NCBI GenBank assembly: GCA_021730935.1
Contig: JAKFYJ010000021.1
Span: 22,451 to 86,450 of the forward strand
Source of the DNA: Elusimicrobiota bacterium
GTDB taxonomy: Bacteria > Elusimicrobiota > Elusimicrobia > 2-02-FULL-39-32
DNA length: 64,000 nucleotides
Direction: 5' to 3'
The notes under the pieces are model-generated. The model was not told the DNA's origin, did no database searches, and saw only the letters and a program-made list of their open reading frames with translations. Within the stretch, counting starts at the first letter, position 1. Every line of letters starts with the position of its first letter. A program made the translations under genes and the position numbers. This document shows, one piece after another, positions 3,328 to 20,831 of this stretch.

Positions 3328-4635
3328 ATGAAGAACACAAGAAAGATCGCGCTTGCCATGGCCCTGTTCGGGCTGATGAGCGGCGTTGCGCACAGCATCG
3401 AGGTCGTGAACAAGGATGACGTGAAGCTCAATATGCACGGGACACTGCAGTCTTATGCGTTCACAAATTATGTGAACGATGAATATCGTGATCACCTCCG
3501 CCTGCTCCTGTTCGTCCGCCAGGCGCGCCTGCGGTTCACGGGAGAAGTGAACACCATCAAGTTCGACGTGCAATATGCGTTCGGCGGCGAAGAAGGCGTG
3601 AAAAACACCGGCGGCACCGTGGCCAACTCGTCCCTGGGCCTCCTGGACTTCAGCGCGGATGTTCCTGTTCCGTTCCTGAGCCAAACTTATTTCAAGTTCG
3701 GACAATACAAAGTTCCCTATGGCCTTGAGCGCCTGGAATATTCCGCCAACCTCATGTATGCGGACCGTTCCATCGCCACCTTGCCCTTCAACCAGGGCCG
3801 GGACGTCGGATTCTCTCTCGTCAACTCGGCGGAACACCATGTCCTGAGCGGAAGCATTTTCACCGGCGGCGGCCGCGACAACCCCATCCGCGATCTCCCC
3901 ATCCGGCTTGGAAGCCCCATGCTCGTTGTGAGAGGCGGATATAAAAATGGGATCGATGAAAATCTGTTTGAACAGAAGCAGACCGATTACGATCAGCTGA
4001 AACCCGGCTTCGCCCTTTTCGGAAACGCTCTTTATATGGAAGACAGCCGCGTGGGACACTCCACCGTCATGCAGACCAAGGCTGTGGAAAAAGGGCTTCT
4101 CACGGATTCCAACTGGAACCCGTATATCGGCGTTGCGGATGTGACCGGCGTGAGCAACTTTGTGACCGGAGACCTCTGGCAGGCGGGCGCGGACATGATC
4201 TGGAGAAAGGCGCTTGCTTCAGGCATTTTCAGCACGGAAGCCGAAGCCAATTACGGCATTTATAAAAATACCCTCGGTTATGTTGAAGCCACGGGCGGCA
4301 GAGTCCAGGTCGGATATTCAAAATCCTTCTGGGGACTGGGACTCCGCTATGCCGTCATCTTCCCTGACGACAAGTTTGCAAAATCCGGACGCAAAGTCAC
4401 AGGCCAGAGAGACCCCATCCACGAAATCACGCCGTCCCTCACGCTCTATCACAAGAAATTCTTCAAGATCGTGATGGACGCGCCTCTCTTGATCGATGTC
4501 CCTGTCTCAGTGGAATCGTCCCCGACGAAACTGGGAGCTTATGTGTTGACCGATCAGCCGGACCAGACGAACGCAGGAGCCATCACCCGCCAGACTGTGC
4601 CTTCGGGCCGGCTGGTCATGCAGTTCAGCTTCTAA
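3328..4635 (+). CDS. outer-membrane porin-like beta-barrel protein (phosphate-selective porin O/P-like)
   Basis: Signal peptide, alternating beta-strand pattern and a C-terminal ...MQFSF aromatic terminus. A strong AGGAGG Shine-Dalgarno sequence sits 6 nt upstream of the start. Confidence 0.55.
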   Translation: MKNTRKIALAMALFGLMSGVAHSIEVVNKDDVKLNMHGTLQSYAFTNYVNDEYRDHLRLLLFVRQARLRFTGEVNTIKFDVQYAFGGEEGVKNTGGTVANSSLGLLDFSADVPVPFLSQTYFKFGQYKVPYGLERLEYSANLMYADRSIATLPFNQGRDVGFSLVNSAEHHVLSGSIFTGGGRDNPIRDLPIRLGSPMLVVRGGYKNGIDENLFEQKQTDYDQLKPGFALFGNALYMEDSRVGHSTVMQTKAVEKGLLTDSNWNPYIGVADVTGVSNFVTGDLWQAGADMIWRKALASGIFSTEAEANYGIYKNTLGYVEATGGRVQVGYSKSFWGLGLRYAVIFPDDKFAKSGRKVTGQRDPIHEITPSLTLYHKKFFKIVMDAPLLIDVPVSVESSPTKLGAYVLTDQPDQTNAGAITRQTVPSGRLVMQFSF

Positions 4636-4647
4636 AGCGCAGACGCA

Positions 4648-5208
4648 TTGTTCGTGAAGAAAACTCTGCTCGCTGGACTTGGGTTACTCCTTGTTCCCTT
4701 CCTGCGAGCAGAGCTTCTTTTTTGTTCCGAGCCCTCTGTTCAGGTTTTTGAAACGGGCCACGACGCCTATGAAGTGTCCTGCCGATTTTCAGTGAACACG
4801 GACAGCAAGACGGCTTGGGCGGTGTTGAGCGATTATGACGGGATCGGCAAGTATGTCACCTCGCTTAAATCCAGCAGGACCGTCGAACGCAAAGCGGACC
4901 ATGTCATGGTTGAGCAAGTGGGGCAGGCAGGATTGTGGTTCGTTCAGTCGAAATTTGAGGTTTTGTTAAAAGTTTACGAAACTCCCGGAACCAAAATTGA
5001 TTTCGAGGATGTCAGCAAGAAAAGTTTTCAGTTTTATCGCGGCTCCTGGGAGATTTTAAACGGTCAGAACGGCGTTCAGATTGTCTATAAACTATCGGTG
5101 GTTCAGCAGACCCGGTTCCCCATGTTCGTGACTCGAGGTTTTTTGCGCAAGAGCATCGCGGAGCTGATCGGTCAGGTCAAAAATAAGATCGATGGCCGGG
5201 GAAGCTGA
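4648..5208 (+). CDS. SRPBCC (polyketide cyclase/dehydrase, START-like) domain protein, secreted
   Basis: 186 aa with a signal peptide followed by sequence resembling a cyclase/dehydrase fold. Confidence 0.5.
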   Translation: MFVKKTLLAGLGLLLVPFLRAELLFCSEPSVQVFETGHDAYEVSCRFSVNTDSKTAWAVLSDYDGIGKYVTSLKSSRTVERKADHVMVEQVGQAGLWFVQSKFEVLLKVYETPGTKIDFEDVSKKSFQFYRGSWEILNGQNGVQIVYKLSVVQQTRFPMFVTRGFLRKSIAELIGQVKNKIDGRGS

Positions 5209-5216
5209 TATTATTT

Positions 5217-5891
5217 TTATTCGATCAAGCTGCGAATATCGTCGGGCTTCTTGATCTCGATTTTCCCTCTCAAAGACACCAAATACCCTTTCTTCTGAAA
5301 ATCCGATAAAGCCCTGAAAGTCGTTTCCAAGGCCACCCCGATCAGTTCCGAAATTTCTTTTTTGGTGAAGGGAATGACATCCCCGTGAATCTGGTGCAGG
5401 CGCGTGAGGATGTTGGCCAGGCGCACATGCACCGTTTCCTGCCCCATGCACCGCAGTTCCTGAACGTCTTTGAGGCGATCCGAACAGAGAGAGCACATGC
5501 CCCGGATCATTCCGGGACTCTTCATATAATATTCCAGAAAAACTTTGTCCAGAATCTGGAGGACCGTCGTGTCGTTGGCGGCCACGGCCGTGCAGGGATA
5601 GGTGCGGTTGTTTCCTCCCATCCGGCAGAGGGTCCCGAACAGTTCGCCGTGACCCAGGCTTTCGATGGCGAAAGGTTTTCCGTCGGAAGTATATTTAAAA
5701 ACCTGCACGCGGCCGTCATAAATCACCCACACGCTGTCCGCCGGATCGCCTTCGTTATAAATGGTGTCTTCCTTCGCGAATGATTTTTCCCTGGCGTGGG
5801 ACGCCACCGCTTTGATGTCGGCGGGGGACAAAGATTTGAACGGCTGGATGTGGGTGAGGAATTTCAGGATGTCCGAAGAGGCCGCGCTCAT
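5217..5891 (-). CDS. Crp/Fnr family transcriptional regulator
   Basis: cNMP-binding beta-roll (GELFG...) plus a C-terminal HTH (EISELIGVALETTFRALSDFQKKGYL). Confidence 0.85.
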   Translation of the reverse strand: MSAASSDILKFLTHIQPFKSLSPADIKAVASHAREKSFAKEDTIYNEGDPADSVWVIYDGRVQVFKYTSDGKPFAIESLGHGELFGTLCRMGGNNRTYPCTAVAANDTTVLQILDKVFLEYYMKSPGMIRGMCSLCSDRLKDVQELRCMGQETVHVRLANILTRLHQIHGDVIPFTKKEISELIGVALETTFRALSDFQKKGYLVSLRGKIEIKKPDDIRSLIE

Positions 5892-7267
5892 TTGTTCAGC
5901 GCTTCCAGCATGGACGGTATGTTCGTGAATTTCTTGCGGGTTTTGCCGTCGGCTTTTCCGTTCGTGATTTCGATCGCGTCGAGCTTTTTCCAGTCCTCAA
6001 AGGTGATGTATTGGATGCCCTTGCTCTCCAGCCATTTCGGAATCGTTGAGAGATCGCTTTCCCTGAAGGGGACCTTGCCGTCTCTCCAGTCTTCAAGGAC
6101 CTTGTGAACGGTGTCGATGGAGTCGGGCTTGTTGGTCCCGATCACGCCGGAGGGGCCCCTCTTGGCCCAGCCCACGACATAAATTCCCGGGATCTGCTTG
6201 AACTGGGGATCGATCACTCGCCCTTCAAGGTTCGGGATCGTTCCTTTTTTTTCGTCATAGGGAATCCCCGGAAGCCGCGTGCCTCGGTATCCGATGGACC
6301 TGAAAATAAGTCCCACGGGAAGAGTTTCAAATTCTCCGGTCCCTTCCGCCGCGATGTTTCCCTGGGCGTCTTTCACGAGACGGTTCTTTTCCAGTTTCAG
6401 CGCCGCGGCTTTTCCGCTTTTCCCGAGGATCTCTTTCGGAGACCCCAAAAACTTGAGGACAATTTTTCTTGGGTTGCCTGACGGCTGTTTCATGGAGTGT
6501 TCCATCAGGATGTTTAAATTATTTTTAGGTTTGGATCCGCCTTCTCCGGATTCAAGAGACGCTTTGGAAAGCTCGTCGAGTTCCAGCTCTTTGGGATCCA
6601 CGATGAGGTCCGCTCCGGGCAAATCGCAGAGTTCCCTGGCTTCAGGGTTCGTGAAGGCCGCCTGCACCGCGCCCCGCCGCCCGATCATATAGATCTCTTT
6701 GATGCGGCTTTCTTTGAGCGCCTGCAGGGCATAATCCGCGATGTCGGTGGATTTGAGCGTTCTGGGATCCCGCGCCAGGATTCGCGTCACGTCGACGGCC
6801 ACATTGCCGTTTCCGATCACGGCCGCCCGTTCGCACGAAAGGTCAAATTTAAGGTTCCGATAATCCGGATGCCCGTTATACCACCCCACGAACTCGGTCG
6901 CAGGAAAACTGCCTTCAAGGTCTTCTCCGGGGATGTTCATTTTGCGGTCGGATTTGGCTCCGACGGCAAAAAGGATCACATCATAAAATTTCTGCAGGTC
7001 TCCGAGCTGGAGGTCCCGCCCGAACTCCACATTTCCGAAAAACCGGAACCCTTCGCGCGCGGCCGTCTTCTCGAACACTTTGGTCACGGTCTTGATCTTC
7101 TCGTGGTCCGGAGCCACTCCGCCCCGCACCAGGCCGAAAGGGGTGGGCAGGCGGTCGAACATGTCCACTGATATTTTCGGCGCGGTCTGGTTCAAAAGTT
7201 CTTCCGCCGCAAAGAATCCGGAAGGCCCGCTTCCGAGGATGGCCGCTTTAAGGATGTTTTCTGGCAT
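5888..7267 (-). CDS. FprA-like NADPH:ferredoxin/adrenodoxin reductase (FAD/NAD(P)-binding)
   Basis: 459 aa with an N-terminal GSGPSGFFAAEELL dinucleotide fold. Its length and motifs are collinear with mycobacterial FprA and adrenodoxin reductase. Confidence 0.8.
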   Translation of the reverse strand: MPENILKAAILGSGPSGFFAAEELLNQTAPKISVDMFDRLPTPFGLVRGGVAPDHEKIKTVTKVFEKTAAREGFRFFGNVEFGRDLQLGDLQKFYDVILFAVGAKSDRKMNIPGEDLEGSFPATEFVGWYNGHPDYRNLKFDLSCERAAVIGNGNVAVDVTRILARDPRTLKSTDIADYALQALKESRIKEIYMIGRRGAVQAAFTNPEARELCDLPGADLIVDPKELELDELSKASLESGEGGSKPKNNLNILMEHSMKQPSGNPRKIVLKFLGSPKEILGKSGKAAALKLEKNRLVKDAQGNIAAEGTGEFETLPVGLIFRSIGYRGTRLPGIPYDEKKGTIPNLEGRVIDPQFKQIPGIYVVGWAKRGPSGVIGTNKPDSIDTVHKVLEDWRDGKVPFRESDLSTIPKWLESKGIQYITFEDWKKLDAIEITNGKADGKTRKKFTNIPSMLEALNK

Positions 7268-7320
7268 AAGGGTATTTTATCATTTTACAGGGGAAGGGAA
7301 TTCTAGTAAAATTTTCCGGC

Positions 7321-8169
7321 ATGGATGATTTGACGCTGGTCCGGGAACTGGACAAAATTTTCGTATATATTGTTGTCCCGGGCCTTGCGGGCATCACATT
7401 CTTTGCGCTTGCCAAATTCGTGCGCCACATCATGCCGCTCCGCGCCCTCGTCTCCAGCCCCCAGACCTATCACGCCGCTTTCTGGGGATTTTTAATTTTC
7501 GGATTTTATCTCGGGCTTCGTCCCGTGCAGGTCCTGGCCGGCCCGCACCCGTGGCCCCTCATCATCTCCAGCATCCGCGAATTTCTCCTGATCGGCGTTT
7601 TCGGTCCCGCCGCGTTCATCGGGATGCTGACCCTCTGTTTCGGGCCGGACCGGATCGGCCGGGGAACCATCGCCGCCGTTGTGGTGATGAGCGTCGCCAT
7701 GGCGGTCGCCTTCTGCGTCGTGAACGGCATGGCGATCGGCGGGTCCGAAGAAATCGTCCGCCTCGGGAGACTCACCGCCTATGACGGCTTGTGGTATAAA
7801 AATAAACGCGAAGACATCGACACGCTCATGCACATCCTTTTTGTGATCCGCATCATCAACCCCGGAGCCATGCTTTTCATCGGCGCCTCTTTCATCCTGC
7901 ACCACGCCTTCACCTATAACGCGTTCAAGCGCAAACTTTATGACAACATGCCCCGCAAACTTTATATCCTGAGCATCGCGGCTTTCATCTATGCTCTCTC
8001 CATTTTCGGCGGCAGTCTCATTTATACGTTCCGTAAAGTCCCCGACCAATGGGGCATCTATCACCTGGGCTCTTTGATCGCGGGGTTCCTCGAAGCGATT
8101 TCTCTCTCCATGCCGGTCCGGAGCGACGTGCAGGTGAGCGAGCATAACGACTCTCCTCTGACGATGTAG
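7321..8169 (+). CDS. polytopic membrane protein of unknown function
   Basis: 282 aa with about seven hydrophobic helices. The antisense ORF 7492..8145 is an acidic low-complexity artefact. Confidence 0.5.
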   Translation: MDDLTLVRELDKIFVYIVVPGLAGITFFALAKFVRHIMPLRALVSSPQTYHAAFWGFLIFGFYLGLRPVQVLAGPHPWPLIISSIREFLLIGVFGPAAFIGMLTLCFGPDRIGRGTIAAVVVMSVAMAVAFCVVNGMAIGGSEEIVRLGRLTAYDGLWYKNKREDIDTLMHILFVIRIINPGAMLFIGASFILHHAFTYNAFKRKLYDNMPRKLYILSIAAFIYALSIFGGSLIYTFRKVPDQWGIYHLGSLIAGFLEAISLSMPVRSDVQVSEHNDSPLTM

Positions 8170-8212: not shown

Positions 8213-8277
8213 TGTTACATTTTTGTTACAAAATGTTTAGGATTTTATTATGACATTACAGGTAGACTCTTGTAATG
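8213..8277 (+). promoter_or_regulatory. candidate promoter and 5' leader structure of the giant GT gene
   Basis: Direct repeat TGTTACA at 8213-8219 and 8224-8230 with 11-bp phasing. -35 TTGTTA (8223-8228), 17-nt spacer, -10 TATTAT (8246-8251). Inverted repeat CATTACA (8254-8260) / TGTAATG (8271-8277) spans the ATG at 8275. Confidence 0.4.
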
Positions 8278-11200
8278 GATAAATCCTTAAACTGGAACTG
8301 GGTTCGATGCACGTCCATTGGGATATGCCTTGTCTTTGTTTATGTCCATGTTGTTTTCTCCGCCATTGAACCCGCAAAGAGCTTCTGGGAACAGCGAAAA
8401 GAATCAGCCCAAAAACTGAGACGAGGGAATGTCCCTCTGCGAGAAGGAAACGTCACGCTTCTCGCAAAGCTACCGGAAGTTGATCTGAATCTTCTGCCGC
8501 AATCGATCCCCATTCCTCAGTCGCTTGGCCGGGAATTTAAAATGGAAGAACATAAAATTTCCGTTCCAAATCTCCCCATAACTTCAAAATATTCCATTAT
8601 ACCCTCCTGGGTTCAATCCTTGTCGGGGAAAAATGTTTCCATCAAAGACCTTTACCTTCCGCCATCCTGGAAACCCGGAGATTTTATGGTTGTGCACATC
8701 CAGGACGCGCACGGCAATGTTGAAGCCCAAAAAAACATCGCCAAAGCTATTGAGTTTTTGTCTCAGGGGCAAAATAAAACCCCCTCTCCCAATCTGGGAG
8801 AGGGCCAGGGTGAGGATCCTCATCTGATTGTGGGCATTGAAGGCGCCAGAGGAGCCTTCAACTTCGCGGCCTATCGCGCTTTCTCCGACAACGACATAAC
8901 AAAACAAATTGCCGATTATTTTCTCCAAGGTTCATTCATAACAGGTCCGGAATATGCGGGCATGACGTCTGAACAGCCGCTCGAGTTCTGGGGCGTTGAG
9001 GACGAAAGTCATTACCTCTCCCATGTTCAGGCATATAAGGACTCCGTGGCTTTCCAAAAGGAAGCCCGCGCCATGATCGAATTGCTCATGCAGCAGCTTG
9101 AACAGACCAAAACCAAATCGCTGAACCCCGAGCTCTGCAGGCTCGACAATCAAATCACATTGCACCGCAAAGGCAAAACCGGCCTTGGGGAACATCTTAA
9201 GATGTTGGATCAGATCAATTTCGGCCGGGATTCCGGTCCCGCCATAAAACAATTTCTTAATGCCTATCAAATCGAAGCCTCGCTCGACTTCAAGAAAGTG
9301 GAATCTGAACGCACTTCCCTCACCCGCGCGCTGGCTGAAAACCTGCCTAAACAAGAACTGCAAAATCTCGTCAAGGCCAGTCTTTCGTATCGCCTCGGGA
9401 ATTTGGCCCACGGGGCATTTTATCAGTATATGAAAGACCTTTGCATAGCTTACGGCATCAAGCTTTCCGCCTGGCCGGAAATGGACAAATATATCCGCTA
9501 TGTTCTTCTCTCTGATAAGATCAGCGCCGAACAGCTTCTCGCAGAAGTGGGAGATGTTGAGAAAAAAGAGGTTGAAGGACTGATAAAAACCGATAAAGAG
9601 CGGGAAGTCATCCGGCTCTCCAGATATCTCACTCTGATCGAAAAACTCGTGAACTTTCAGCTTTCTCCCGCAGAATGGAAGGAATATGAAATGTTGGGTC
9701 ATCCGGCGTCTGCCGATTTCGCGAACGTTATAAAATTTATTCAACCCTTCGAACGATTCAACCGCGCCGCCATCGCCCGTAATGATGTCCTTGTCGGCAA
9801 TCTCCTTCAAAAATCCGGAGGGCGGTTGGCCGTTCTGGTCGCAGGGGGGTTCCACACCGACGGCATGATGGGAATCTTAAAAAACAAAAAAATCGCCTAT
9901 GCGGTTCTGACTCCTCGGCTCGGCAAAGCGGAAGGAACGGGCAGCGAGTATCTCGATGTCTTCAAGCGCGATGAGACCCCGATCGAAAAGCTTTTTACGG
10001 GCGAGAGGATCACACTTGCATCTCAATCCCGGATGGCTCCCGGCATGGGTGAAACGATGCCGGACACTTTGACGGTTGAGAGCCAATTCATTGGGTTCCA
10101 AATTCTTCTGAAACTGGCCAAAACATTGAAAGCCGAGGGATATAAAACCCCGTCTGAGCGCAGGGCAGCCGTCGATCAAATAGCTGAAAAGGTTCGGGCT
10201 CAAGTCCTGGGAGAGGACGGGGTAAAATTTTTAACGGTCAGAGATATTGAGACGAGTTCTCAAGATGATCGATCGATTGCGGTCCATTACACCTACGAAC
10301 TTAATGGTGTGAAAAAGCAAAGCACAGTTGACTTTGCGCTCTTGGAGAAAGAGGCTCCGCTCGAAAATGTTTCCGGGATCCCTGCGGATGTTGGACCAAA
10401 TAAAATTCTTATGACTCCCCATATGCCTGCGGTCCGATGGGGAAGTCAGTTAACCACACTGCGGTCCTCAGGCGCGATCGGATTTTTAATGTCTCTTTCT
10501 GTAATGGACATCTTGTCCCCTCATGGCATTGCGATCGGAGCAGGTTTGGGTCTCGGCATGATTTTTTGGCTCTGGCTGTCAGACCTTCTGAGCAGACGCA
10601 AAAATCCCTCAGCAAATCATTTGATTGTTCAACCCGTTGTCCGCGAACCCGGGACCTTGCCCAAAGTTGCCATTGTCATCGTAAATTTTAAAGGGGGAGC
10701 GGATCCCCGGGGGACTGTGCACATCAAAAACCTGCTTGCTTCTCTCGGCGCAATGACTCGTGAGAAGTTCAACTATGAAGTGATCGTGGTGGATAACGAT
10801 TCAACCCCAGACTCTCTCGGCGCGATTCGCGAAGGATTGGCAGATTTTCCCGTCTCTGAGGTTATAGAAAATCCGGCAAATCTTGGAGCTGCGGCGGCAA
10901 GAAACCAGGCGATCAGGAACGCATTGGGCCGCGGCAATGATTACATCATGACCTTTGACAATGATACTTTTATTGAACCGGGTGTCGTCGATCAGATGGT
11001 GGACTTTGCGGAGAAATCGCCTCAGGATGTTTTGGCGATCACGCCGAGAATCTATAATGCAAAGGACAAAGATAAACTTTGGTCTGTGGGCCGGAAATTG
11101 GCCAAATTTCCGTATCTGCGCCTGGACGCGCGGGGCAGCCAAGAGGATAAATTCACAGAGCCCTCCGAAGTTGATTTTCTGACGACAGCGGCCGCCCTTT

Positions 11201-14200
11201 TCAGAGCTTCTGCATTTAAGGAAGATCATGCAGGCCTCTTCAATGAGGATTTTTTCATCTACGAAGAGGACAGCGAATGGTGTGTCAGGGCTCAAAAAGC
11301 CGGAGGGAGGACACTTTTCGTACCGGTCGCGGACAAAGTGTACCACGTCGGGAACCAAAGCTTCAATGGGGGCAGAATATCTTCCGAAAGAAATTATTAC
11401 ATGATCCGGAATCGGCTCCTGTCGATGCGCATCCATGGCCAATTTTTACAGCCGCTCCATCTCCTGAGGCTTTTCAGAGCCTTGGCGATAATGAGTTATA
11501 AAACATTGATTCAAGGGAAAAGTCTCCGGGCTTTCGGAGCATTCCTTCTTGGCATTTGGGATGGAAGCCTTGGCAGAGGCGGGATAGGACGCACTTTTCA
11601 AAATCAAGCGTCCAATCAGAACCCCCGCGCCGCGAAAGTTTCCTGGGGGAAAAGATATGAGAAGGTTCTTTTTCCCTCAAATAATACTGCTTCACAAAAT
11701 GTGCCAAGCCTCCGCGATAAAATTATTCAGCGTATCGCATCCAATGTCCCGCTGCTAATGTCCCTGCCGATTAACTTCATTATGATTGCGATCGTCGGAA
11801 CAAGTGCAACACAGTTGTCCGGATTATTTCTGTCGGAAGGCCACTTTTGGCTTGCGGTCTTTATTTGGGGATATTCCATTTCAATAATTTTACTCATCTG
11901 GATCTGGTCGTTCAGAGTCGTTTATAGCATTTTAGGGTTTTTGATCGAAAAATTCATGCATTTCGATTCCAAGCATTTGGCCTATACCAAACCAAATTTG
12001 CCTCAAAACGCGATTTATCCTTCTCTCACGGCTATCATTCCGGTTTATGATGAGCCCTGGGAAGCGATTTTAACATCTCTCAACTCGGCCATTTCCGCTC
12101 GTGAACATTTTGAACACGCATCAAATATTGTTGTCGCGGATGACTACATCGGTGTTTTGGCCGGGGGAGATGTTGCTGAGTTCGTTCGAAGCGCAAAATC
12201 AAAGGCCATACAAAATGTTCCCCTGAGCGGTGCGGAAACCGAAGTCCTCCGGCGGTTAAACTTTTATGATAGCCACGGCATTGGGGTCATCGCGCAGCCT
12301 GCCCATCAGGCCCATTTTGCTGAAGGAACCTACATTCGCGAAGGGCAATTTCCAAAGGCCCACAATCTCAACGTGCTTCATCAGGCCTCGGATTTGATCG
12401 AGGATTATATGAAAGGGGGAATGACCTATTCCGAAGCTTTGAAACGGTTAATCAAAAATGGACAAGTCCACGGATTCACCACGTTTAAATATGCCTATAT
12501 TTCCGAAGTGCAATCCATTTGCACCGGAGATGTTTTGTTATTCTTAGATAATGATTCCTTTGTCCCTCAAGCGGCGCATTCCCCCACCTTGGCTCAGTTT
12601 GTGTTGGAAGAAAATCTGGCCTACACTCAGAATGAAACCGTCATTCATAACGGGGATCAATCGCTTTTCGCGAGGCTGCTGGCCAGTAACGTGGATGCAA
12701 ATAGATTTCTAAACGGATTCAAAGCGCGATTTGGAATCGTGACCTTTTCTGGGCACAATGGGTACATTCGTAAAAGCGTTCTCAGGCAGGTGGGGTACTG
12801 GCCGGTGGACAGAATTTCCGAAGACCATGTGGTAACATATCGCATCATTAACGAGAGAGACCCCGTTGGTAACCAATATTACGGCAAATTTATTGCTTAT
12901 CCGGGGCTGGAATTTGGAGAATCGGCTCCGGAAGACTTCACCACATTTGCCGGCAGGGAATATAAATTTATCATGGGCGACCTGCAAACGTTCTTAAACC
13001 CAATAGCGAACTGGATGAGAGAGGGGATTTTTTCCAGGGACACGCGTTCTTATCTTTCCTCTCATCTGACTCTAACCCAGAGGCATGATAACCTTTTCAG
13101 GCAATCCCGCCCGCTTTTGTCTATTTTAAATTTTGTGACTCTAATCAATTTTCTTATATTCCCAATCATTGTGCCGGAGTCATTGTTGTCGATAGTTCAA
13201 AACGGGGCGACGATCTCGGTTGTTTCCAATCCGGTGAATTTGCGAATTGTGCCCTACAGCGTATTTACAATCATCTTCTTATCCATCCTGCTAATTGACT
13301 TGATCCCCATTTGCGTTTCTCTTATCAGGACCTCGGTCACCCTTAAAAATGATCTTAAGGAAGAGGAGGAAATATTTTATTGGACCAGAATTATTTTTAC
13401 AGCCCTTATCGCCGATACCTTGATCATGAAAATGATCGTGCACATCGCCACCCTTCCCTGGCAGCTCAAGGGAATCGCGACGCACCTTTTGTCCAGAGAG
13501 ATCAAGATCGGAAGCACCAAAAATCTGACGGGGGATTGGAAAGCCCAAGCCGTCAAGATCTTGCGCGCCAACAAACTCAATATTCCTTTTTCAATTTTCA
13601 TCGGCATCTTGTTCACCTTGTGGCTGCGACATGTTTTTCCGCTGATTCAAACAACAAATCTCCTGACCCGCGTCATCTTATTCGTTTTCATTTTTGAACA
13701 TTCCATCCGGGTCGTGGGGCCCCTCCTTGGCCCATTTGTGTTAAATCCCTCCTCAGGTAAAAAAGCCATCCATCTTATGAATGATGTTAAAGAATTTTCA
13801 AGAAACAAATTTAACCTTGAAGCTCGTCCCAGGCGCCTTTCCCTTTATTTTATCGGGACGGCCGCCGTGGCGGGAGGCATCCTTCTTCGGTTCTGGAATC
13901 TCAATTATTTGGGACCATGGATGGACGAAGCCATGTACATACTCGCTGGCAAAAACATGGGCAACCCTGCGCTCAATTATGGCTGGATCAGCGGATGGAA
14001 ATATCTTTATCCCGCAGTCACTTACTTTGGATACGATCTGGCCGGTTCCGTGGTCGGGTCCAGAATTGTCAATGGGCTCCTCGGGTTGGGGACGGCGTTT
14101 TTCGCTTTCCTGTTTTCCAGGAAAGTGATTTCTGAAATTTTTAGCGCGGACAATGCTAAGACGAACGATGCGAGAGCCCTGGCGAGCTTGGTGGTTCTTA

Positions 14201-16935
14201 TGGCCTCGGGGCCCTTGATGATCATCAGCCGTTTGGCAACGTATGACGGTTTGGCCTTTTTCTTTTTTGCGGTTTCCGTTTATCTGATCCAGAATAATTC
14301 AAAATCTAAAAACCCTTCGGCTTTTTTATTTTTAGGTGCCATCGCATTTGTGCTGGCCTTTCTTTCAAAATATTTTCTGGTCATTTTTACGCCCTTCATC
14401 TTAACCTATGCCCTCATTCAGACGAAAGACAGAACTCGGTGGACAAAATATTTCCTGCTTCCTTTTCTCTTCCCCTTGGCTGTCTTTTTTGCCTTCTTTG
14501 GGAATGACTTTGCCGCGGGACTGCAATATGCCGCCAAACAAAATAAGTTGCAGTCTTGGGGCGTCTGGGGGATCACAAGGGAAACGGCCATCAACGGCGG
14601 AGTCCCATTTCTGCTTTCCATTCTGGGATTATTGCGGGTGCCAAAAGAGAAAAGAATGCTGGCTTTTTGGCCCATCGGAGGGGCCATGCTGGTATATGTC
14701 TATCACGTGCTCGATCTTCATGTTCAGGGCCTTCCCAAAGTCCTCAGTGGCTCAGTGATTCTTTTGGCTCCGCTGGCCGGCGTTGGGCTTATAAAACTGA
14801 TGTCCTTGGCCATTCACCGGCGCAAACAAGTGAACTGGCTCGCGAGGTTGTCGATTTTGGCCATCTTAATTCGCGCTTCCATTTGGACTTTGCCCGGGCA
14901 TCCCATTGCGGGTTCACGGACTGAGTTTTGGCAGGACAACTATACGGTTGCGGAAGTAATTAAATATTATGCGCAGGACGTCCCGGAGCCTTGGATCCAT
15001 TCTTCCCGAGCGCATGAGCTTGCGCTATTACTGCCCTCTCTGGAGTCCTCCATCAATCCGGTGAAAAAAACCGGCGTGGAGAGTAATCCTTATTTTTCGA
15101 GCATGTATGTCACTCCCGAGCCGGAATTTTTTGAGAATATCAAGAACCGGAAGTACGCCATCGTCCATTTATATCCTGAATATTGGAATCCCGCTTGGTC
15201 CGAATATCCAGATTTAGTCAGAAACACTCTGGAATTGCTCAAACAAAATGGCTATGTCCATGCTTATTATGATGACCGGCCGAACATCACCTCTTTCGGA
15301 ACGGAACTTTCCCCGTCGCGTTCCCACATTTATGTCCGGGATGATATTTTTAATAAATCCGGCACCGTTACAAGCAAAGACGGCCATCTTCTTTTCCCCG
15401 GGAAATCTCCGGGCGCCATGGGCATGTGGCAGAAATTTGGAATAAATAATCTCGTAAAAATCGCGCACCTTGAAAATATCATCCTCGGAATCTTGGCCAT
15501 GGGCGCAACCGTATTTCTTATTCACCTGGGTCTCATGCCTCAAGCTCCGCCCGCAAATTTCGCAGATGCTGGCCTTCTTCTTTTTAAAATCTTTTCAGTT
15601 TCAGGATTCCTTTACATTTTTCTTCGTCACCTCCTTCTCAAAGCGCATTATTATTTGGGCGTCGCTCAACCGATCGGCCCGCCCGTCATGCGCGATTGGG
15701 AGGAGGCCGTGCAATCCACAAGAACAGCGTCCTTGAGTCTCGTCTCCGTTCCCTTCATTGTCGCGGGAATGATTTTTATGTCTTGGGCAGGCCCTCTCGC
15801 GATCCTCACCGGTATTGCGCTCTCCGGCATGGGTGTCTCTTTGGGAGGCCGCTTGCATGCGCGAAGAAATGACCTTGCCCAATCCTGGGCTATGCCGCGG
15901 AGTCTTATTGAAATCCGAATGGAACGCGCTTTCAGTGAAATAAAAAAATTCCAAATTGATGATCACAACGCTCAAGTCAGGCATGCTCTGAAACTGGTCG
16001 CACTCTGGAGACTGTTCAATGGGGAAGCTCTGGACCAAACTTTGAGCGCGGACCGCATCGATCAGACGGAACTCGAAAGAGTAATCAGATTTCATTCCAC
16101 CAGAGAAATGGCTTCCATCGCGGGTCACATGGACGCCGTGGCGAAAGGCGTTTCTGCATGGGACTTCTTCTATCATGGAGGCATGCAAGAGGACTTGAGC
16201 GCGGATGCTTTAATTTTCGAAGAAGCCATTAACGCTTATCAAATCATGCGGTATCATGCGCGGCCGGGTCTGCGATTGAGTGAAACACAAATCGCAAGTG
16301 CAAAAGATATTTGGGAACTTGGACGTATTTCAGCTTCCGCGCTCAAAACCTGTGAAGTTATCGATGTTTTAAACAGCGAAAAATTAAAGCGAACGGACGC
16401 CTATGCTTCAGAAAATCAAGTTCTGCTTCATAAAGTGCACCGCCTCTCAAATCAGGAGATTTCTATATTGGTCCGCAGCATCAAAAGGGAAAATGCTTCC
16501 GGCAATCTCAATCAGGTCACTTTTTTGCTGGATGCGGGAACGCGAAACATATCCCGAAGCGAGCTAAAACAGCTTCTCGGGAAATATGGCGTTACGGAAA
16601 ATATGTTTGACGGTGCCTTCAGAGGCGACTTCAAGAGCCACATGATTACAGAGGAAGAAATAGCCCAGCGCCAGAATGTGGACCCTTCCATCAAGCGCGA
16701 CACGGAGATGATTTATGAAATCGCCGCAGGAAAAGCCGGCGTTTTGGCTGGCCGCCCCATCCGAGGCAAAATATCCCTGGACATTTATACCGATGAAATG
16801 ATTTACAGCGAAAGCTGGGGAGAAAAATTATCCATCAGAATTCTGTTCATCGTCTCGCAAACCCAGGTCGTTGTTATGAGTCAATGCATCGATCAAGCCC
16901 TCCGCGAAGACGCTCTCGTTGCTTTGCAGCAATAA
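8275..16935 (+). CDS. giant 2886-aa polytopic multi-glycosyltransferase fusion (ChaN/Tiki-like domain + GT2 + cellulose-synthase-like GT2 + PMT/ArnT-like GT-C + C-terminal domain)
   Basis: Single uninterrupted 8661-nt ORF. Motifs: VVHIQDAHGN...AGGFHTDG; VAIVIVNF...VVDNDS...FDNDTF...YEEDSEWCVR; IIPVYDEP...VVADDY...FLDNDSF...ISEDHVVTYRI; LRFWNLNYLGPWMDEAMYILAG, with more than 25 predicted transmembrane helices. Confidence 0.9.
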   Translation: MDKSLNWNWVRCTSIGICLVFVYVHVVFSAIEPAKSFWEQRKESAQKLRRGNVPLREGNVTLLAKLPEVDLNLLPQSIPIPQSLGREFKMEEHKISVPNLPITSKYSIIPSWVQSLSGKNVSIKDLYLPPSWKPGDFMVVHIQDAHGNVEAQKNIAKAIEFLSQGQNKTPSPNLGEGQGEDPHLIVGIEGARGAFNFAAYRAFSDNDITKQIADYFLQGSFITGPEYAGMTSEQPLEFWGVEDESHYLSHVQAYKDSVAFQKEARAMIELLMQQLEQTKTKSLNPELCRLDNQITLHRKGKTGLGEHLKMLDQINFGRDSGPAIKQFLNAYQIEASLDFKKVESERTSLTRALAENLPKQELQNLVKASLSYRLGNLAHGAFYQYMKDLCIAYGIKLSAWPEMDKYIRYVLLSDKISAEQLLAEVGDVEKKEVEGLIKTDKEREVIRLSRYLTLIEKLVNFQLSPAEWKEYEMLGHPASADFANVIKFIQPFERFNRAAIARNDVLVGNLLQKSGGRLAVLVAGGFHTDGMMGILKNKKIAYAVLTPRLGKAEGTGSEYLDVFKRDETPIEKLFTGERITLASQSRMAPGMGETMPDTLTVESQFIGFQILLKLAKTLKAEGYKTPSERRAAVDQIAEKVRAQVLGEDGVKFLTVRDIETSSQDDRSIAVHYTYELNGVKKQSTVDFALLEKEAPLENVSGIPADVGPNKILMTPHMPAVRWGSQLTTLRSSGAIGFLMSLSVMDILSPHGIAIGAGLGLGMIFWLWLSDLLSRRKNPSANHLIVQPVVREPGTLPKVAIVIVNFKGGADPRGTVHIKNLLASLGAMTREKFNYEVIVVDNDSTPDSLGAIREGLADFPVSEVIENPANLGAAAARNQAIRNALGRGNDYIMTFDNDTFIEPGVVDQMVDFAEKSPQDVLAITPRIYNAKDKDKLWSVGRKLAKFPYLRLDARGSQEDKFTEPSEVDFLTTAAALFRASAFKEDHAGLFNEDFFIYEEDSEWCVRAQKAGGRTLFVPVADKVYHVGNQSFNGGRISSERNYYMIRNRLLSMRIHGQFLQPLHLLRLFRALAIMSYKTLIQGKSLRAFGAFLLGIWDGSLGRGGIGRTFQNQASNQNPRAAKVSWGKRYEKVLFPSNNTASQNVPSLRDKIIQRIASNVPLLMSLPINFIMIAIVGTSATQLSGLFLSEGHFWLAVFIWGYSISIILLIWIWSFRVVYSILGFLIEKFMHFDSKHLAYTKPNLPQNAIYPSLTAIIPVYDEPWEAILTSLNSAISAREHFEHASNIVVADDYIGVLAGGDVAEFVRSAKSKAIQNVPLSGAETEVLRRLNFYDSHGIGVIAQPAHQAHFAEGTYIREGQFPKAHNLNVLHQASDLIEDYMKGGMTYSEALKRLIKNGQVHGFTTFKYAYISEVQSICTGDVLLFLDNDSFVPQAAHSPTLAQFVLEENLAYTQNETVIHNGDQSLFARLLASNVDANRFLNGFKARFGIVTFSGHNGYIRKSVLRQVGYWPVDRISEDHVVTYRIINERDPVGNQYYGKFIAYPGLEFGESAPEDFTTFAGREYKFIMGDLQTFLNPIANWMREGIFSRDTRSYLSSHLTLTQRHDNLFRQSRPLLSILNFVTLINFLIFPIIVPESLLSIVQNGATISVVSNPVNLRIVPYSVFTIIFLSILLIDLIPICVSLIRTSVTLKNDLKEEEEIFYWTRIIFTALIADTLIMKMIVHIATLPWQLKGIATHLLSREIKIGSTKNLTGDWKAQAVKILRANKLNIPFSIFIGILFTLWLRHVFPLIQTTNLLTRVILFVFIFEHSIRVVGPLLGPFVLNPSSGKKAIHLMNDVKEFSRNKFNLEARPRRLSLYFIGTAAVAGGILLRFWNLNYLGPWMDEAMYILAGKNMGNPALNYGWISGWKYLYPAVTYFGYDLAGSVVGSRIVNGLLGLGTAFFAFLFSRKVISEIFSADNAKTNDARALASLVVLMASGPLMIISRLATYDGLAFFFFAVSVYLIQNNSKSKNPSAFLFLGAIAFVLAFLSKYFLVIFTPFILTYALIQTKDRTRWTKYFLLPFLFPLAVFFAFFGNDFAAGLQYAAKQNKLQSWGVWGITRETAINGGVPFLLSILGLLRVPKEKRMLAFWPIGGAMLVYVYHVLDLHVQGLPKVLSGSVILLAPLAGVGLIKLMSLAIHRRKQVNWLARLSILAILIRASIWTLPGHPIAGSRTEFWQDNYTVAEVIKYYAQDVPEPWIHSSRAHELALLLPSLESSINPVKKTGVESNPYFSSMYVTPEPEFFENIKNRKYAIVHLYPEYWNPAWSEYPDLVRNTLELLKQNGYVHAYYDDRPNITSFGTELSPSRSHIYVRDDIFNKSGTVTSKDGHLLFPGKSPGAMGMWQKFGINNLVKIAHLENIILGILAMGATVFLIHLGLMPQAPPANFADAGLLLFKIFSVSGFLYIFLRHLLLKAHYYLGVAQPIGPPVMRDWEEAVQSTRTASLSLVSVPFIVAGMIFMSWAGPLAILTGIALSGMGVSLGGRLHARRNDLAQSWAMPRSLIEIRMERAFSEIKKFQIDDHNAQVRHALKLVALWRLFNGEALDQTLSADRIDQTELERVIRFHSTREMASIAGHMDAVAKGVSAWDFFYHGGMQEDLSADALIFEEAINAYQIMRYHARPGLRLSETQIASAKDIWELGRISASALKTCEVIDVLNSEKLKRTDAYASENQVLLHKVHRLSNQEISILVRSIKRENASGNLNQVTFLLDAGTRNISRSELKQLLGKYGVTENMFDGAFRGDFKSHMITEEEIAQRQNVDPSIKRDTEMIYEIAAGKAGVLAGRPIRGKISLDIYTDEMIYSESWGEKLSIRILFIVSQTQVVVMSQCIDQALREDALVALQQ

Positions 16936-17042: not shown

Positions 17043-18659
17043 ATGAAAAGATATTTTTTCGCCGCAATTTTCCTTATTGTCTGCGCCGCAGTTCATGCTC
17101 AGCCTTCGGTCCTCATCAATGAGGTCGCCAGCGAAGAGCCCACGCCGCCCGGAGACTGGATCGAGTTTTATGTCTCAAGTTTCACGGACCTGAGCGGCTG
17201 GAAAGTTTTTGAGCAGAACGCGCTCGTGAAAACATTTCCTTCCTTGTCATTGTCCGCGGGAACCTATTTCATCCTCAAATTCAACTCCTCTTCGCCTGAC
17301 GAAACCCCTGCCTCCGGCGACGCGAACGGCAACGGAATTCTGGATCTCTATACGGCGGACACGGGCCTGACAGGGACGTCCAATGCAGTTTCCTTAAGAG
17401 ATGCGAAAGGGCTCGTCATGGACGCGGTCGTTTTCTCAGACAGCGCGAGCTGGACCAGCGCTCAGCAATCCGCCTTCGACATGCTGGTGTCCACGGGGCA
17501 GTGGCAGGGAACCGTGAACGGCGGTCTCAAAAACTTTTCTGATTCCGTGAATATCGCGGGAGGCGTCGGGCCCGGCAATTCAATCGGCAGGAACCCGGAC
17601 GCGCTCGACACGAACCACTTTTCGGACTGGCGACATATTAAAGGAACCCAAACCAAAGGCTCTCAAAATCCCGCCTCAGTCGCCTGCCCAAACAGCCCGC
17701 CGTTCGAGGGGACGATCTCGGAGGTCGCCCCCTCCCTGCCCATTTCCGCCGGAGGCGATTTTGTGGAGATTTTCGTCAACAACCCGATCAATGTTTGCGG
17801 ATCAAAAATATATGAAGGCGCGGGACTCATCAAAACACTCCCTTCCGTGACTCCCAATGCCGGACCTTTCGGGTCCTATATTATTCTTCACGCAGGAGCA
17901 AAAATATCTCCTTCCAATCCTGACGAAACCGATGTCACAGGTGACATGAACGGCAACGGCTCTGTCGATCTTTATTCGGACGAGTCCAGTCCCGGCATCA
18001 CCGGGAGCGCGGACAACGCCATTCTGCTGGAATCTTCCGACGGAAACCTCATTGATTTTATGGGGTTCTCCGACAAATTGCTTTTTTATTCCGCCGTTCT
18101 TCAGGGGCAATATAACCGCGCGGTTTCTCAGGGCCTCTGGGTCCCGGAATGCAGCGGTGAAGAGGACTGCTACGGCGCCGGCTCCGTGGCCTGGTCCAAC
18201 TCCACGACAAAATCAATTTCCAAGAAAATTTCAGAAGGAGGTTTTCCGATGAGTTCTCGGCCTTCCAGTCCCGACGACTGGGAGATATCGGCGCCCACTC
18301 CCGGGAAAACATCAAGGACCGCAAAACAAGAAACGGCGCCTGCCAAAAACGCCATCCGCGTGAGCCAGTCCCCTTTTTCTCCGATTGGCGACGGGCCTTT
18401 CAGAGAAGCCTTGTTTGATTGCCCGTCGGACCCCGGCTCAAAGATCACGCTCAAGCTTTATGATGTTCAGGGCCGGCTCATCCGCACGATCGCGGACCGC
18501 GTTTCCGCAGACGATGCCCAGGTTTTTTCGTGGGACGGCAGGAATGCCGGAGGCGATTTGGTTCCCGTCGGCATCTATGTCGTCTGGTTTGAAATCAAGC
18601 AGTCAAACGGCGAGCTCAGCCATAACGCCGAAACGGTCGTCGTCGGGAGACAGCTATGA
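17043..18659 (+). CDS. secreted protein with two lamin-tail domains and a C-terminal FlgD-Ig/T9SS-type sorting domain
   Basis: AAGGAG Shine-Dalgarno 8 nt before ATG 17043, with signal peptide MKRYFFAAIFLIVCAAVHA. Lamin-tail-domain motifs LINEV...DWIEFYV..DLSGW and ISEV...DFVEIFV. C-terminal KITLKLYDVQGRLIRTI...GIYVVWFEI matches por_Secre_tail/FlgD-Ig style domains. Confidence 0.75.
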   Translation: MKRYFFAAIFLIVCAAVHAQPSVLINEVASEEPTPPGDWIEFYVSSFTDLSGWKVFEQNALVKTFPSLSLSAGTYFILKFNSSSPDETPASGDANGNGILDLYTADTGLTGTSNAVSLRDAKGLVMDAVVFSDSASWTSAQQSAFDMLVSTGQWQGTVNGGLKNFSDSVNIAGGVGPGNSIGRNPDALDTNHFSDWRHIKGTQTKGSQNPASVACPNSPPFEGTISEVAPSLPISAGGDFVEIFVNNPINVCGSKIYEGAGLIKTLPSVTPNAGPFGSYIILHAGAKISPSNPDETDVTGDMNGNGSVDLYSDESSPGITGSADNAILLESSDGNLIDFMGFSDKLLFYSAVLQGQYNRAVSQGLWVPECSGEEDCYGAGSVAWSNSTTKSISKKISEGGFPMSSRPSSPDDWEISAPTPGKTSRTAKQETAPAKNAIRVSQSPFSPIGDGPFREALFDCPSDPGSKITLKLYDVQGRLIRTIADRVSADDAQVFSWDGRNAGGDLVPVGIYVVWFEIKQSNGELSHNAETVVVGRQL

Positions 18660-19756
18660 AACGCCTGGGATATGTTGCCGCGCTTCTTTTGATTTTCTTT
18701 GCCGCCGGTGCCCGCGCCGCGTTTGAGCCGAAAGAAATCGGTCCCCGGGCCATCGGGTTTTCCGGCGCTTATTCCGCCGCCGCAACGGACGCCTATGCTC
18801 CCTTTTGGAACCCGGGCGCTCTCGGCCGGATCAAAGCCAGAGAAGCCGCCTCATTTTATAGCCGCGCTTTTGCCCTGGGAGATTTGGCTCAAACAGGAAT
18901 CGCCTATGCCGACAAGACGCGTTTTGGGAACATGGCGTTCGGCTTCACGCAGTTCGGCTCAAAAACCTATCTGGAACAGGAAATGATTTATACCCACGCC
19001 TATCAAATCACGCCGAGACTCAGCGCGGGATATAACCTCAAGATGCTTCTTCTCCGCATCGAAAATTTCGGGTCTTCCGTGAAATTTGCGATGGACCTCG
19101 GACTTGAAGGCAAAGTCTCTGAGAGGCTGGACCTCTCTCTGTCAGGGAAAAATATCAACCGTCCCGCGTTCGGTTCGCAGAAGGAAGAGATCTCCTCGAT
19201 CTGGACTTCCGGGTTCGTGTTCAAAGTCATGCCGGGACTTCTTTTCGCGTGCGATGTGGAAGGTTTGGGAACGCCCTCCGCCCGCCTGAAATCCGGAATG
19301 GAAGTGGACTTGAGCCCCGCTTTCGCTTTGCGCGGCGGATTGCAGAGCGGGCCTTCCCGTTTTTCCGGCGGGTTCCGCGCCAGGCACGGCAACCTGTCTC
19401 TGGATTACGCCTATCAGCATCATCCTTTTCTCCCCGGATCCCACCACATGGGCCTCAGCTACAGCTGGGGAGATCCCGAAAGCTTTGCGGGGTTTCTCAA
19501 CATAAAAGCAGAAAAGAAGCCGGCAAAAAAATCCGCGGCCAAAATTTATAAGTTCAATGAAAAAATGAACCTCATGACCGCCTCAAAGGAAGAGCTTCTT
19601 CAAATTCCGGGAATCGGCGAATTCACCGCCGAGAAACTGATTGCCTATCGCGACCAGGTCGGGCTCAAAACCATCGACGATGTTTTATATATCCCGGGCA
19701 TGACCAAAAGAATTTTCCTGCTCATCAAAGACACCTGTTCCGTGGAGAAACCGTGA
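18656..19756 (+). CDS. PorV/PorQ-like outer-membrane beta-barrel fused to a C-terminal ComEA-type helix-hairpin-helix domain
   Basis: Signal peptide, then a PorV-type N-terminal motif (AIGFSGAYSAAATDAYAPFWNPGALG) and beta-strand periodicity. The C-terminus has LLQIPGIGEFTAEKLIAYRDQVGLKTIDDVLYIPGM, a ComEA-like HhH. The ATG overlaps the upstream TGA (ATGA). Confidence 0.6.
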   Translation: MKRLGYVAALLLIFFAAGARAAFEPKEIGPRAIGFSGAYSAAATDAYAPFWNPGALGRIKAREAASFYSRAFALGDLAQTGIAYADKTRFGNMAFGFTQFGSKTYLEQEMIYTHAYQITPRLSAGYNLKMLLLRIENFGSSVKFAMDLGLEGKVSERLDLSLSGKNINRPAFGSQKEEISSIWTSGFVFKVMPGLLFACDVEGLGTPSARLKSGMEVDLSPAFALRGGLQSGPSRFSGGFRARHGNLSLDYAYQHHPFLPGSHHMGLSYSWGDPESFAGFLNIKAEKKPAKKSAAKIYKFNEKMNLMTASKEELLQIPGIGEFTAEKLIAYRDQVGLKTIDDVLYIPGMTKRIFLLIKDTCSVEKP

Positions 19757-20811: not shown

Positions 20812-20831
20812 GGTCGATTCATGAATCGACC
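20812..20831. terminator. perfect 20-bp palindrome between convergent genes (candidate bidirectional terminator hairpin)
   Basis: GGTCGATTCATGAATCGACC equals its own reverse complement. It lies exactly between the cupin gene stop (20811) and the nuclease gene stop (20843). Confidence 0.45.

Follow-up and report, generated by a model that had tools for sequence, protein, structure and literature searches.

A predicted outer-membrane barrel carrying a ComEA-type helix-hairpin-helix module is conserved in Elusimicrobia

This report concerns a gene in a 64-kb stretch of DNA from an Elusimicrobiota bacterium (the whole stretch analyzed, hereafter the window), which encodes a predicted beta-barrel of the PorV/FadL superfamily followed by a helix-hairpin-helix (HhH) module of the ComEA type. 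We find that this barrel-HhH fusion is conserved, widespread and unnamed, and that across its family the gene opens a module of two barrels, in which one or more periplasmic HhH are almost always present. According to the structural model, the HhH module almost certainly hangs in the periplasm and not on the cell surface. The gene forms a translationally coupled trio with an upstream gene, whose product combines lamin-tail domains (LTD) with a C-terminal domain (CTD) like those of the type IX secretion system (T9SS), and with a downstream gene for a small exported beta protein. As a tentative explanation, we propose a PorV/PorQ-like anchor that docks a CTD at the surface and a tethered ComEA-like module for periplasmic DNA.

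Domain composition of the fusion protein

The gene is an uninterrupted open reading frame (ORF) from ATG to stop (18656-19756, forward strand, in the list of ORFs of the window), encoding 366 amino acids (aa) plus the stop codon; its parts are given in Table 1. In the translation the motif FWNPGALG occupies residues 50-57 (N52-P53) and LLQIPGIGEFTAEKLIAYRDQ residues 314-334, and the sequence suggests that the signal peptide is cleaved between residues 21 and 22.

An earlier note, made from the sequence of the window alone, had described the protein as a PorV/PorQ-like barrel with a C-terminal HhH of the ComEA type, and had proposed searches with hidden Markov models (HMMs) and a structure prediction locating the HhH relative to the barrel. 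The searches give a significant HhH match and a sub-threshold PorV-type match. The ComEA-type assignment is borne out, because the Pfam model HHH_3 matches residues 302-358 (E = 1.2e-8, 35.3 bits; gathering cut-off 27) and because the tail taken alone (the last 93 residues) matches the ComEA DNA-binding structures 8DSS (E = 1.4e-7), 8DFK (E = 1.2e-6) and 2DUY. The isolated tail also matches the HhH repeats of EEPD1, and the single-motif Pfam model HHH reaches 27.5 bits (cut-off 24). The NCBIfam ComEA models remain below their cut-offs (TIGR01259, 36.4 against 152.35 bits; TIGR00426, 31.1 against 53.1 bits).

For the N-terminal part the likeness to PorV/PorQ is real, in that the predicted fold has 14 strands and bears a hatch, but it falls below the family threshold. 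The NCBIfam model PorV_fam (NF033709) matches residues 29-150 at model positions 12-156 of 326, with E = 8.9e-9 and 35.4 bits against a cut-off of 90, and the PorV2 and PorQ models match the barrel more weakly. The protein has no match to the NCBIfam model BamG, and the Pfam model Toluene_X (PF03349) is not listed for it even at E <= 1. When a profile of the family was compared with solved structures, the best match was PorV (6H3I_F, E = 3.6e-4), falling at the N-terminal motif and the last strands, and the next were TbuX and TodX. Judged from sequence, the PorV label is a sub-threshold resemblance inside the FadL superfamily. The boundaries proposed earlier also have to be moved: the barrel ends at about residue 271 and not 290, and the folded tail comprises about 66 residues, which follow a linker of about 28.

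Predicted structure and membrane topology

We modeled the protein with AlphaFold2 from an alignment of 14 sequences, and the model has a mean predicted local distance difference test (pLDDT) of 85. It begins with the helix of the signal peptide (residues 2-16) and a low-confidence stretch, continues with hatch residues 22-60, in which short helices lie ahead of strand 1, and then with 14 strands spanning residues 63-270 (assigned with DSSP), a disordered linker (pLDDT below 50 at residues 282-299) and an independent four-helix HhH domain (residues 301-366, pLDDT 83-90, with helices at 311-314, 322-334, 340-345 and 351-360). The C-terminal segment is modeled as a domain of its own, neither a barrel strand nor a plug. 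In this prediction the N-terminal hatch plugs a compact 14-stranded barrel of the PorV/FadL superfamily, and the overall layout is OmpA-like. The hatch segment aligns with the N-terminus of PorV (6H3I_F) and with those of TbuX and TodX, its residues F23, E24, N52, P53 and L56 are almost invariant across the family, and the linker ranges from 9 to 66 residues among its members.

A Foldseek comparison of the model with the Protein Data Bank (PDB) returned CymD, FadL, PorV (8GL6_F) and TodX, followed by generic porins. PorV has the lowest root-mean-square deviation of the matches (5.6; TMq 0.57), and we regard the similarity of the modeled barrel to FadL, CymD and PorV as about equal.

As a general rule, outer-membrane barrels with an even number of strands have both termini in the periplasm, where the short turns are also found. 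In the model the connections between strands on the side of the C-terminus measure 2, 2, 4, 2, 2 and 2 residues, and those on the opposite side 7, 3, 3, 16, 6, 4 and 6 residues (from the AlphaFold2 strand boundaries). The even number of strands, the short turns on the C-terminal side and the alignment of the last strands with those of PorV all place the HhH in the periplasm, which is the answer of the model to the question of where the HhH sits and which makes the surface placement suggested in the earlier note unlikely. Independent support comes from related loci in which the HhH lies directly behind the signal peptide of the next gene.

Size and distribution of the family

A full HMMER scan over 1.84 billion cluster representatives recovered 2,670 representatives at E <= 1e-30. 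We classed the architectures of 162 proteins, mostly the best 150 of the 2,670, and found 71 barrels without HhH, 56 barrels with one HhH and 28 with two; the fusion with one or two HhH accounts for at least 84 clusters at 50% identity. A word-indexed search returned 14 relatives (6 fused to HhH and 8 barrel-only) and, for the partner gene, one relative, and a genome scan found two close Elusimicrobia loci and otherwise ordinary PorV genes of Ignavibacteria. All members with a named source are Elusimicrobia proteins annotated as "hypothetical protein", and among the 14 relatives those with a name belong to metagenome-assembled Elusimicrobia genomes. A fused member that scores better than the protein of the window (P0170) reaches 68.6 bits on PorV_fam across the entire model and 53.3 bits on TIGR00426 (ComEA-HhH; cut-off 53.1).

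No Pfam or NCBIfam model covers the barrel-HhH architecture and our literature searches found no description of the fusion, so that the combination is apparently undescribed, as the earlier note had supposed. No further copy of the HhH or of the barrel was found elsewhere in the window.

Five proteins (P0040, P0079, P0080, P0102 and P0143), picked up by the HhH part of the profile only, carry five to seven tandem ComEA-type HhH modules each, and in P0079 the C-terminal region after the repeats looks, by eye, like an endonuclease/exonuclease/phosphatase domain.

Genomic contexts and the two-gene module

We compared thirteen genomic contexts of the barrel (Table 1). In 12 of these a second exported, beta-rich protein is encoded directly after the small barrel, and each of the 12 pairs carries at least one ComEA-type HhH, located at the C-terminus of the first gene product, at the N-terminus of the second after its signal peptide, or in both. 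All three barrel-only homologues that belong to such pairs are followed by a partner bearing HHH_3 (650-720 aa, with a signal peptide and a beta region). This distribution, with the HhH in either protein or in both, constitutes a Rosetta-stone link between the two genes.

The long partners of 627-798 aa are exported and combine an N-terminal ComEA-type HhH with a beta-rich region of about 530-590 aa, which closes on an aromatic residue in the three that were read to the end (L009, L012 and L014). Outside the HhH these partners have no Pfam match (E <= 10 on the beta regions) and no NCBIfam or PDB profile match, and their sequences suggest an undescribed family of what are probably large outer-membrane barrels. 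Pairwise comparison relates the 445-aa partner of L017 to the 655-aa one of L009 (E = 1e-5).

In the window the second gene encodes a protein of only 191 aa, which is retained in L002 and L003. It has no family match in Pfam or NCBIfam, comparison with the 445-720 aa partners by BLASTP and hhalign gave nothing significant, and a single-sequence AlphaFold2 model was uninformative (pLDDT 37). We treat this protein as the positional equivalent only of the second barrel found across the family, and we rejected homology to the long partners as a basis for the assignment.

The three genes of the window overlap at both junctions: the stop codon of the upstream gene overlaps the start of the barrel-HhH gene (ATGA), and the GTG start of the downstream gene overlaps its stop codon (GTGA). 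The link to the neighboring LTD gene, which the earlier note had pointed out, is real, given the ATGA overlap and the presence of an LTD gene upstream of the barrel in 8 of the 13 contexts. The upstream protein passes the Pfam cut-offs for LTD (40.3 against 34.3 bits) and FlgD_ig (27.1 against 27), a second LTD copy is evident from an internal repeat (E = 2e-22), and its C-terminus has weak similarity to CHU_C, to the PorU CTD and to Por_Secre_tail. The downstream partner and the T9SS-type sorting domain of the LTD protein had both escaped the earlier note, and they change the picture. In L009 a 127-aa gene of the 23S_rRNA_IVP four-helix-bundle type (7628-8011) lies between the LTD and barrel genes and overlaps the start of the latter.

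Table 1. Parts of the barrel-HhH protein, adjoining genes of the window, and gene order in the contexts compared (L and P numbers are our handles for loci and proteins)
Feature or context	Position	Strand	Description
Signal peptide	residues 1-21, 18656..18718	+	MKRLGYVAALLLIFFAAGARA followed by AFEP; hydrophobic core and A-x-A site
N-terminal hatch/plug segment	residues 22-60, 18719..18835	+	contains FadL/PorV-type FWNPGALG
14-stranded beta-barrel (predicted)	residues 61-271, 18836..19468	+	terminus ...GLSYSW; AlphaFold2 with DSSP, Foldseek
Flexible Lys-rich linker	residues 272-300, 19469..19555	+	net charge +4 (computed); low pLDDT
ComEA-type HhH module	residues 301-366, 19556..19753	+	two HhH motifs; HHH_3, PDB matches, AlphaFold2
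Upstream partner, 544 aa	17025..18659	+	signal peptide, two LTD, C-terminal FlgD_ig/T9SS-CTD-like beta-sandwich
Downstream partner, 191 aa	19753..20328	+	signal peptide and beta-rich body, end ...KVSYRW
Cupin_2 lipoprotein, 149 aa	20362..20811	+	Cupin_2 E = 7e-12; co-directional, 34 nucleotides downstream
Window, L002, L003, L013			LTD-CTD, barrel-HhH, partner of about 190 aa (truncated in L013, where the contig ends)
L017, syntenic with window			LTD-CTD, barrel-HhH, 445-aa partner
L009	partner 8853-10820		LTD-CTD, barrel, 655-aa partner with N-terminal HHH_3
L012	partner 5743-7881		barrel, 712-aa partner with N-terminal HHH_3
P0014 contig			barrel, 720-aa partner with HHH_3
L014	partner 8240-10255		LTD-CTD, barrel-HhH, 671-aa partner with HHH_3
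L016	partner 8863-11259		LTD, barrel-HhH-HhH, 798-aa partner with two HHH_3
L018	partner 4481-6364		barrel-HhH-HhH, 627-aa partner with HHH_3
L008			barrel-HhH, long beta-rich partner without HhH
L019/L020			distant barrel-only homologue, stands alone

T9SS-like features of the extended loci

Two of the related loci extend into runs with three or four extra FadL-type barrels each (L014, 10249-14122; L016, 11299-14971). These barrels have sub-threshold matches to PorV_fam, PorQ and BamG (47-68 bits for BamG), and a barrel of these loci matches Pfam PorP/SprF and reaches 88.9 bits on PorV_fam. They are accompanied by an S8 peptidase ending in a type A sorting domain of the T9SS (Por_Secre_tail, 25 bits against a cut-off of 23) and by giant proteins with LTD, CBM and CHU_C domains, and in L012 a PorD-like gene adjoins the pair. 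The sequences of these loci suggest a T9SS-like cargo system in Elusimicrobia. No T9SS core gene (SprA/Sov, PorK-N) was found among the roughly 35 scanned ORFs of the window or in related loci, and our literature searches found no relevant report of T9SS, FlgD or competence for Elusimicrobia.

The same two loci encode proteins with a SpoVG domain (L014, 4725-5345; L016, 2977-3642), and the one in L014 has an evident signal peptide at its start. Since SpoVG is a nucleic-acid-binding fold that normally resides in the cytoplasm, an exported form is unusual.

Comparison with known systems

The membrane part has a parallel in PorV and PorQ (6H3I_F, 8GL6_F), which like the predicted barrel have 14 strands, an N-terminal hatch and an NPA/NPG motif, and whose genes likewise adjoin one for a protein with a T9SS-type CTD. 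They differ in size (about 370 against about 250 residues), in having no C-terminal periplasmic HhH, and in that the barrel described here has very short outer loops and no T9SS core genes seen near it. FadL, TodX and CymD are its top Foldseek matches, but it is much smaller, and neither these proteins nor BamG carry an HhH tail. OmpA has the same order of barrel, disordered linker and small periplasmic domain; its barrel, however, has 8 strands and its periplasmic domain is the peptidoglycan-binding OmpA_C, so that we see an analogy of design without homology. In the inverse autotransporters intimin and invasin the N-terminal barrel has 12 strands, its pore contains the linker and the C-terminal passenger is exposed at the surface, in contrast to the 14 strands and the hatch of the present model.

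Characterized ComEA proteins are either soluble periplasmic proteins or have an inner-membrane anchor. The tail shares with ComEA (PF12836) the atypical double-HhH fold, the PGIG of hairpin 1, the YR...G core and the predicted periplasmic compartment, but it would be anchored to the outer membrane by the barrel, it lacks the SLBB and oligomerization domains, it has Thr in place of the key lysine, and no comEC lies nearby in the window. A likeness of parts, and a precedent for the function proposed below, exists in Riemerella anatipestifer, in which the barrel RA0C_RS04915, the surface protein RA0C_RS04920 and the periplasmic HhH protein RA0C_RS02645 are each essential for transformation (PMC8459023). 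The authors of that study found no counterparts of well-known DNA-uptake machinery, and their mechanistic model is speculative in the paper itself (PMC8459023). Both systems combine a barrel in the outer membrane with a surface protein and an HhH in the periplasm, although the HhH protein of Riemerella is separate and not fused to the barrel.

Proposed function and alternatives

The explanation we prefer joins two inferred activities, docking of a CTD by the barrel and binding of DNA by the tail in the periplasm; as a whole we hold it only tentatively, at a little less than an even chance of being right. In the T9SS the CTDs of PorU and PorZ are retained and stay bound to PorV and PorQ, and PorV is a docking subunit with SprA. 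By analogy, the barrel would be the docking site at the cell surface for the CTD of the lamin-tail protein encoded beside it. Docking is also known for another FadL-type barrel, since in the BAM complex of Bacteroidota BamG binds the surface lipoprotein BamH and docks with BamA (PMC12611786), and it is this role of FadL-type barrels that motivates the proposal. Below the outer membrane the tethered HhH module or modules would bind a polyanionic polymer, most plausibly DNA entering the periplasm, and the module as a whole may serve as an outer-membrane-anchored, ComEA-like receptor within machinery for the capture or uptake of DNA from outside the cell.

DNA binding by the tail is plausible from its sequence. 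ComEA and EEPD1 are both DNA binders, and the modules of the family conserve the P-G-I-G of hairpin 1, Arg332 (83 of 85 modules) and Gly336 (78 of 85); a pair of basic residues follows hairpin 2, which itself reads G-M-T and not G-I-G. The number of HhH copies per module varies from 1 to 4, and these are spaced by long charged linkers. The SpoVG-domain proteins of the two extended loci also speak for a connection with nucleic acids.

Several observations, however, count against this explanation. The best-conserved DNA-contact lysine of ComEA is K164 in B. subtilis, K166 in G. stearothermophilus and K63 in V. cholerae, and K166A abolishes binding in electrophoretic mobility shift assays, while K164A cuts transformation more than 100-fold (PMC9747964). 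This lysine aligns with Thr324 in the protein of the window. Of 85 family modules, 38 have Thr in the same column, 17 have Leu and only 8 have Lys, and three HhH modules of downstream partners have Glu, Glu and Leu there. The HhH of one partner passes the PsbU and T2SSK cut-offs and some modules of the family also score on the PsbU and GspK models; we know of no DNA binding by the HhH folds of PsbU or GspK (T2SSK). No comEC, dprA or pilus gene was found among the ORFs of the window that were scanned. The second barrel here is only 191 aa long, which makes a DNA-sized conduit at this locus doubtful, and the small barrel, which is plugged and scores well below the PorV cut-off, has very short outer loops, unlike PorV, whose loops bind CTDs. 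The HhH module of the window has a net charge of -1 and a pI of 5.3, which points in the same direction without being discriminating. We considered net charge as a test of DNA binding and set it aside as uninformative, because the aligned ComEA fragment of 8DFK is itself slightly acidic (hand count).

Among the alternatives the principal one is a purely T9SS-like sorting or anchoring device, in which the barrel would be a docking subunit of the PorV/PorQ/BamG type for CTD-bearing proteins and the HhH a periplasmic protein-protein or scaffold module, as in GspK or PsbU, linking the two barrels or tying them to another envelope component, without involvement of nucleic acid; we consider this unlikely on balance but a serious competitor. 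It accounts for the clustering of CTD proteins around the module (the LTD-CTD protein, the giant CHU_C proteins and the S8 peptidase with Por_Secre_tail), for the PorV/PorQ/BamG-like and PorP/SprF-like barrels of the extended loci and the PorD-like gene in L012, and it agrees with the docking role known for FadL-type barrels (PorV with SprA, BamG with BamA and BamH), with the mostly missing DNA-contact lysine and with the PsbU and T2SSK matches of one partner. It leaves unexplained, however, why a ComEA-type fold was chosen, why the copies vary from 1 to 4 and why the HhH is retained on either gene; the best matches of the tail are still ComEA and EEPD1, no SprA or PorKLMN homologue was seen in the loci examined and no T9SS in Elusimicrobia turned up in our literature searches, and the small barrel lacks long outer loops. 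A more ambitious version of the DNA-based explanation, to which we give a rather small chance, is a pilus-independent apparatus for DNA capture and import built from T9SS-type parts, in which the small PorV-like barrel would hold the lamin-tail receptor at the surface through its sorting domain, the larger second barrel would be the conduit and the 1-4 tethered periplasmic HhH a ratchet, the genome of the window then having a reduced version.

The remaining alternatives are much less probable. An ordinary FadL-type channel for hydrophobic compounds, with the tail as an envelope tether of the OmpA kind and with unrelated neighbors, would fit CymD, FadL and TodX as top structural matches and the conserved hatch motif of the family, but we judge it quite improbable given the absence of a Toluene_X match at E <= 1, the very short outer loops, the tight coupling to the neighbors and the two-gene module in 12 of 13 contexts; to our knowledge HhH modules do not bind peptidoglycan. 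Slightly less probable still, in our estimate, is an HhH tail exported to the outside, for example by threading through the barrel as in inverse autotransporters, where it would bind extracellular DNA jointly with the LTD protein. A barrel followed by an additional domain recalls intimin and invasin, the intimin beta-domain is among the weak Foldseek matches (rank 50) and an extended 28-residue linker could span the membrane; yet the model shows 14 strands and a lumen filled by a FadL-type hatch, where 12 strands and a pore containing the linker would be expected, the turns on the C-terminal side measure 2-4 residues, and related loci carry the HhH at the N-terminus of the next barrel after its signal peptide, a periplasmic position. 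Finally, the HhH belongs to the next gene in some relatives, which might suggest that adjacent genes were merged by an assembly or frameshift error. We rejected such an artefact, with a practically negligible chance of its being correct, because independent samples share the architecture at 48-64% identity and it recurs in the 84 or more clusters of the family; moreover, the reading frame is continuous and a partner gene of its own follows it.

Other features of the window

The Cupin_2 gene that follows the trio is present in L002, L003 and L017 and absent from the distant loci, and its membership of the module is doubtful, since it is conserved only in close relatives. A BFN nuclease gene lies downstream and is convergent with the cupin gene; between the two, a perfect palindrome of 20 nucleotides (GGTCGATTCATGAATCGACC, 20812-20831) looks, from its sequence, like a bidirectional terminator. 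Directly upstream of the operon a single ORF of 2886 aa (8275-16935, forward strand) contains two GT2 glycosyltransferase domains, a PMT_2/ArnT-like domain and many membrane segments. Farther along the window, a 1137-aa fusion (51612-55025, forward strand) joins an MFS transporter, an acyltransferase and an AMP-binding enzyme, and presumably resembles a fused lysophospholipid recycling system of the LplT/Aas type.

Implications

If the explanation we prefer is correct, a ComEA-type module fixed to the inside of the outer membrane would solve the first step of DNA entry in a new way, all the more so as two adjacent barrels share it, and would hint at how DNA might get across an outer membrane with no secretin involved. 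Should the HhH not bind DNA, the module would instead extend T9SS-style docking between PorV-like barrels and CTDs to organisms beyond the phyla related to Bacteroidota, and add a new adaptor in the periplasm. In both cases, several hundred "hypothetical proteins" of Elusimicrobia gain a predicted structure, a topology and a defined partner gene.

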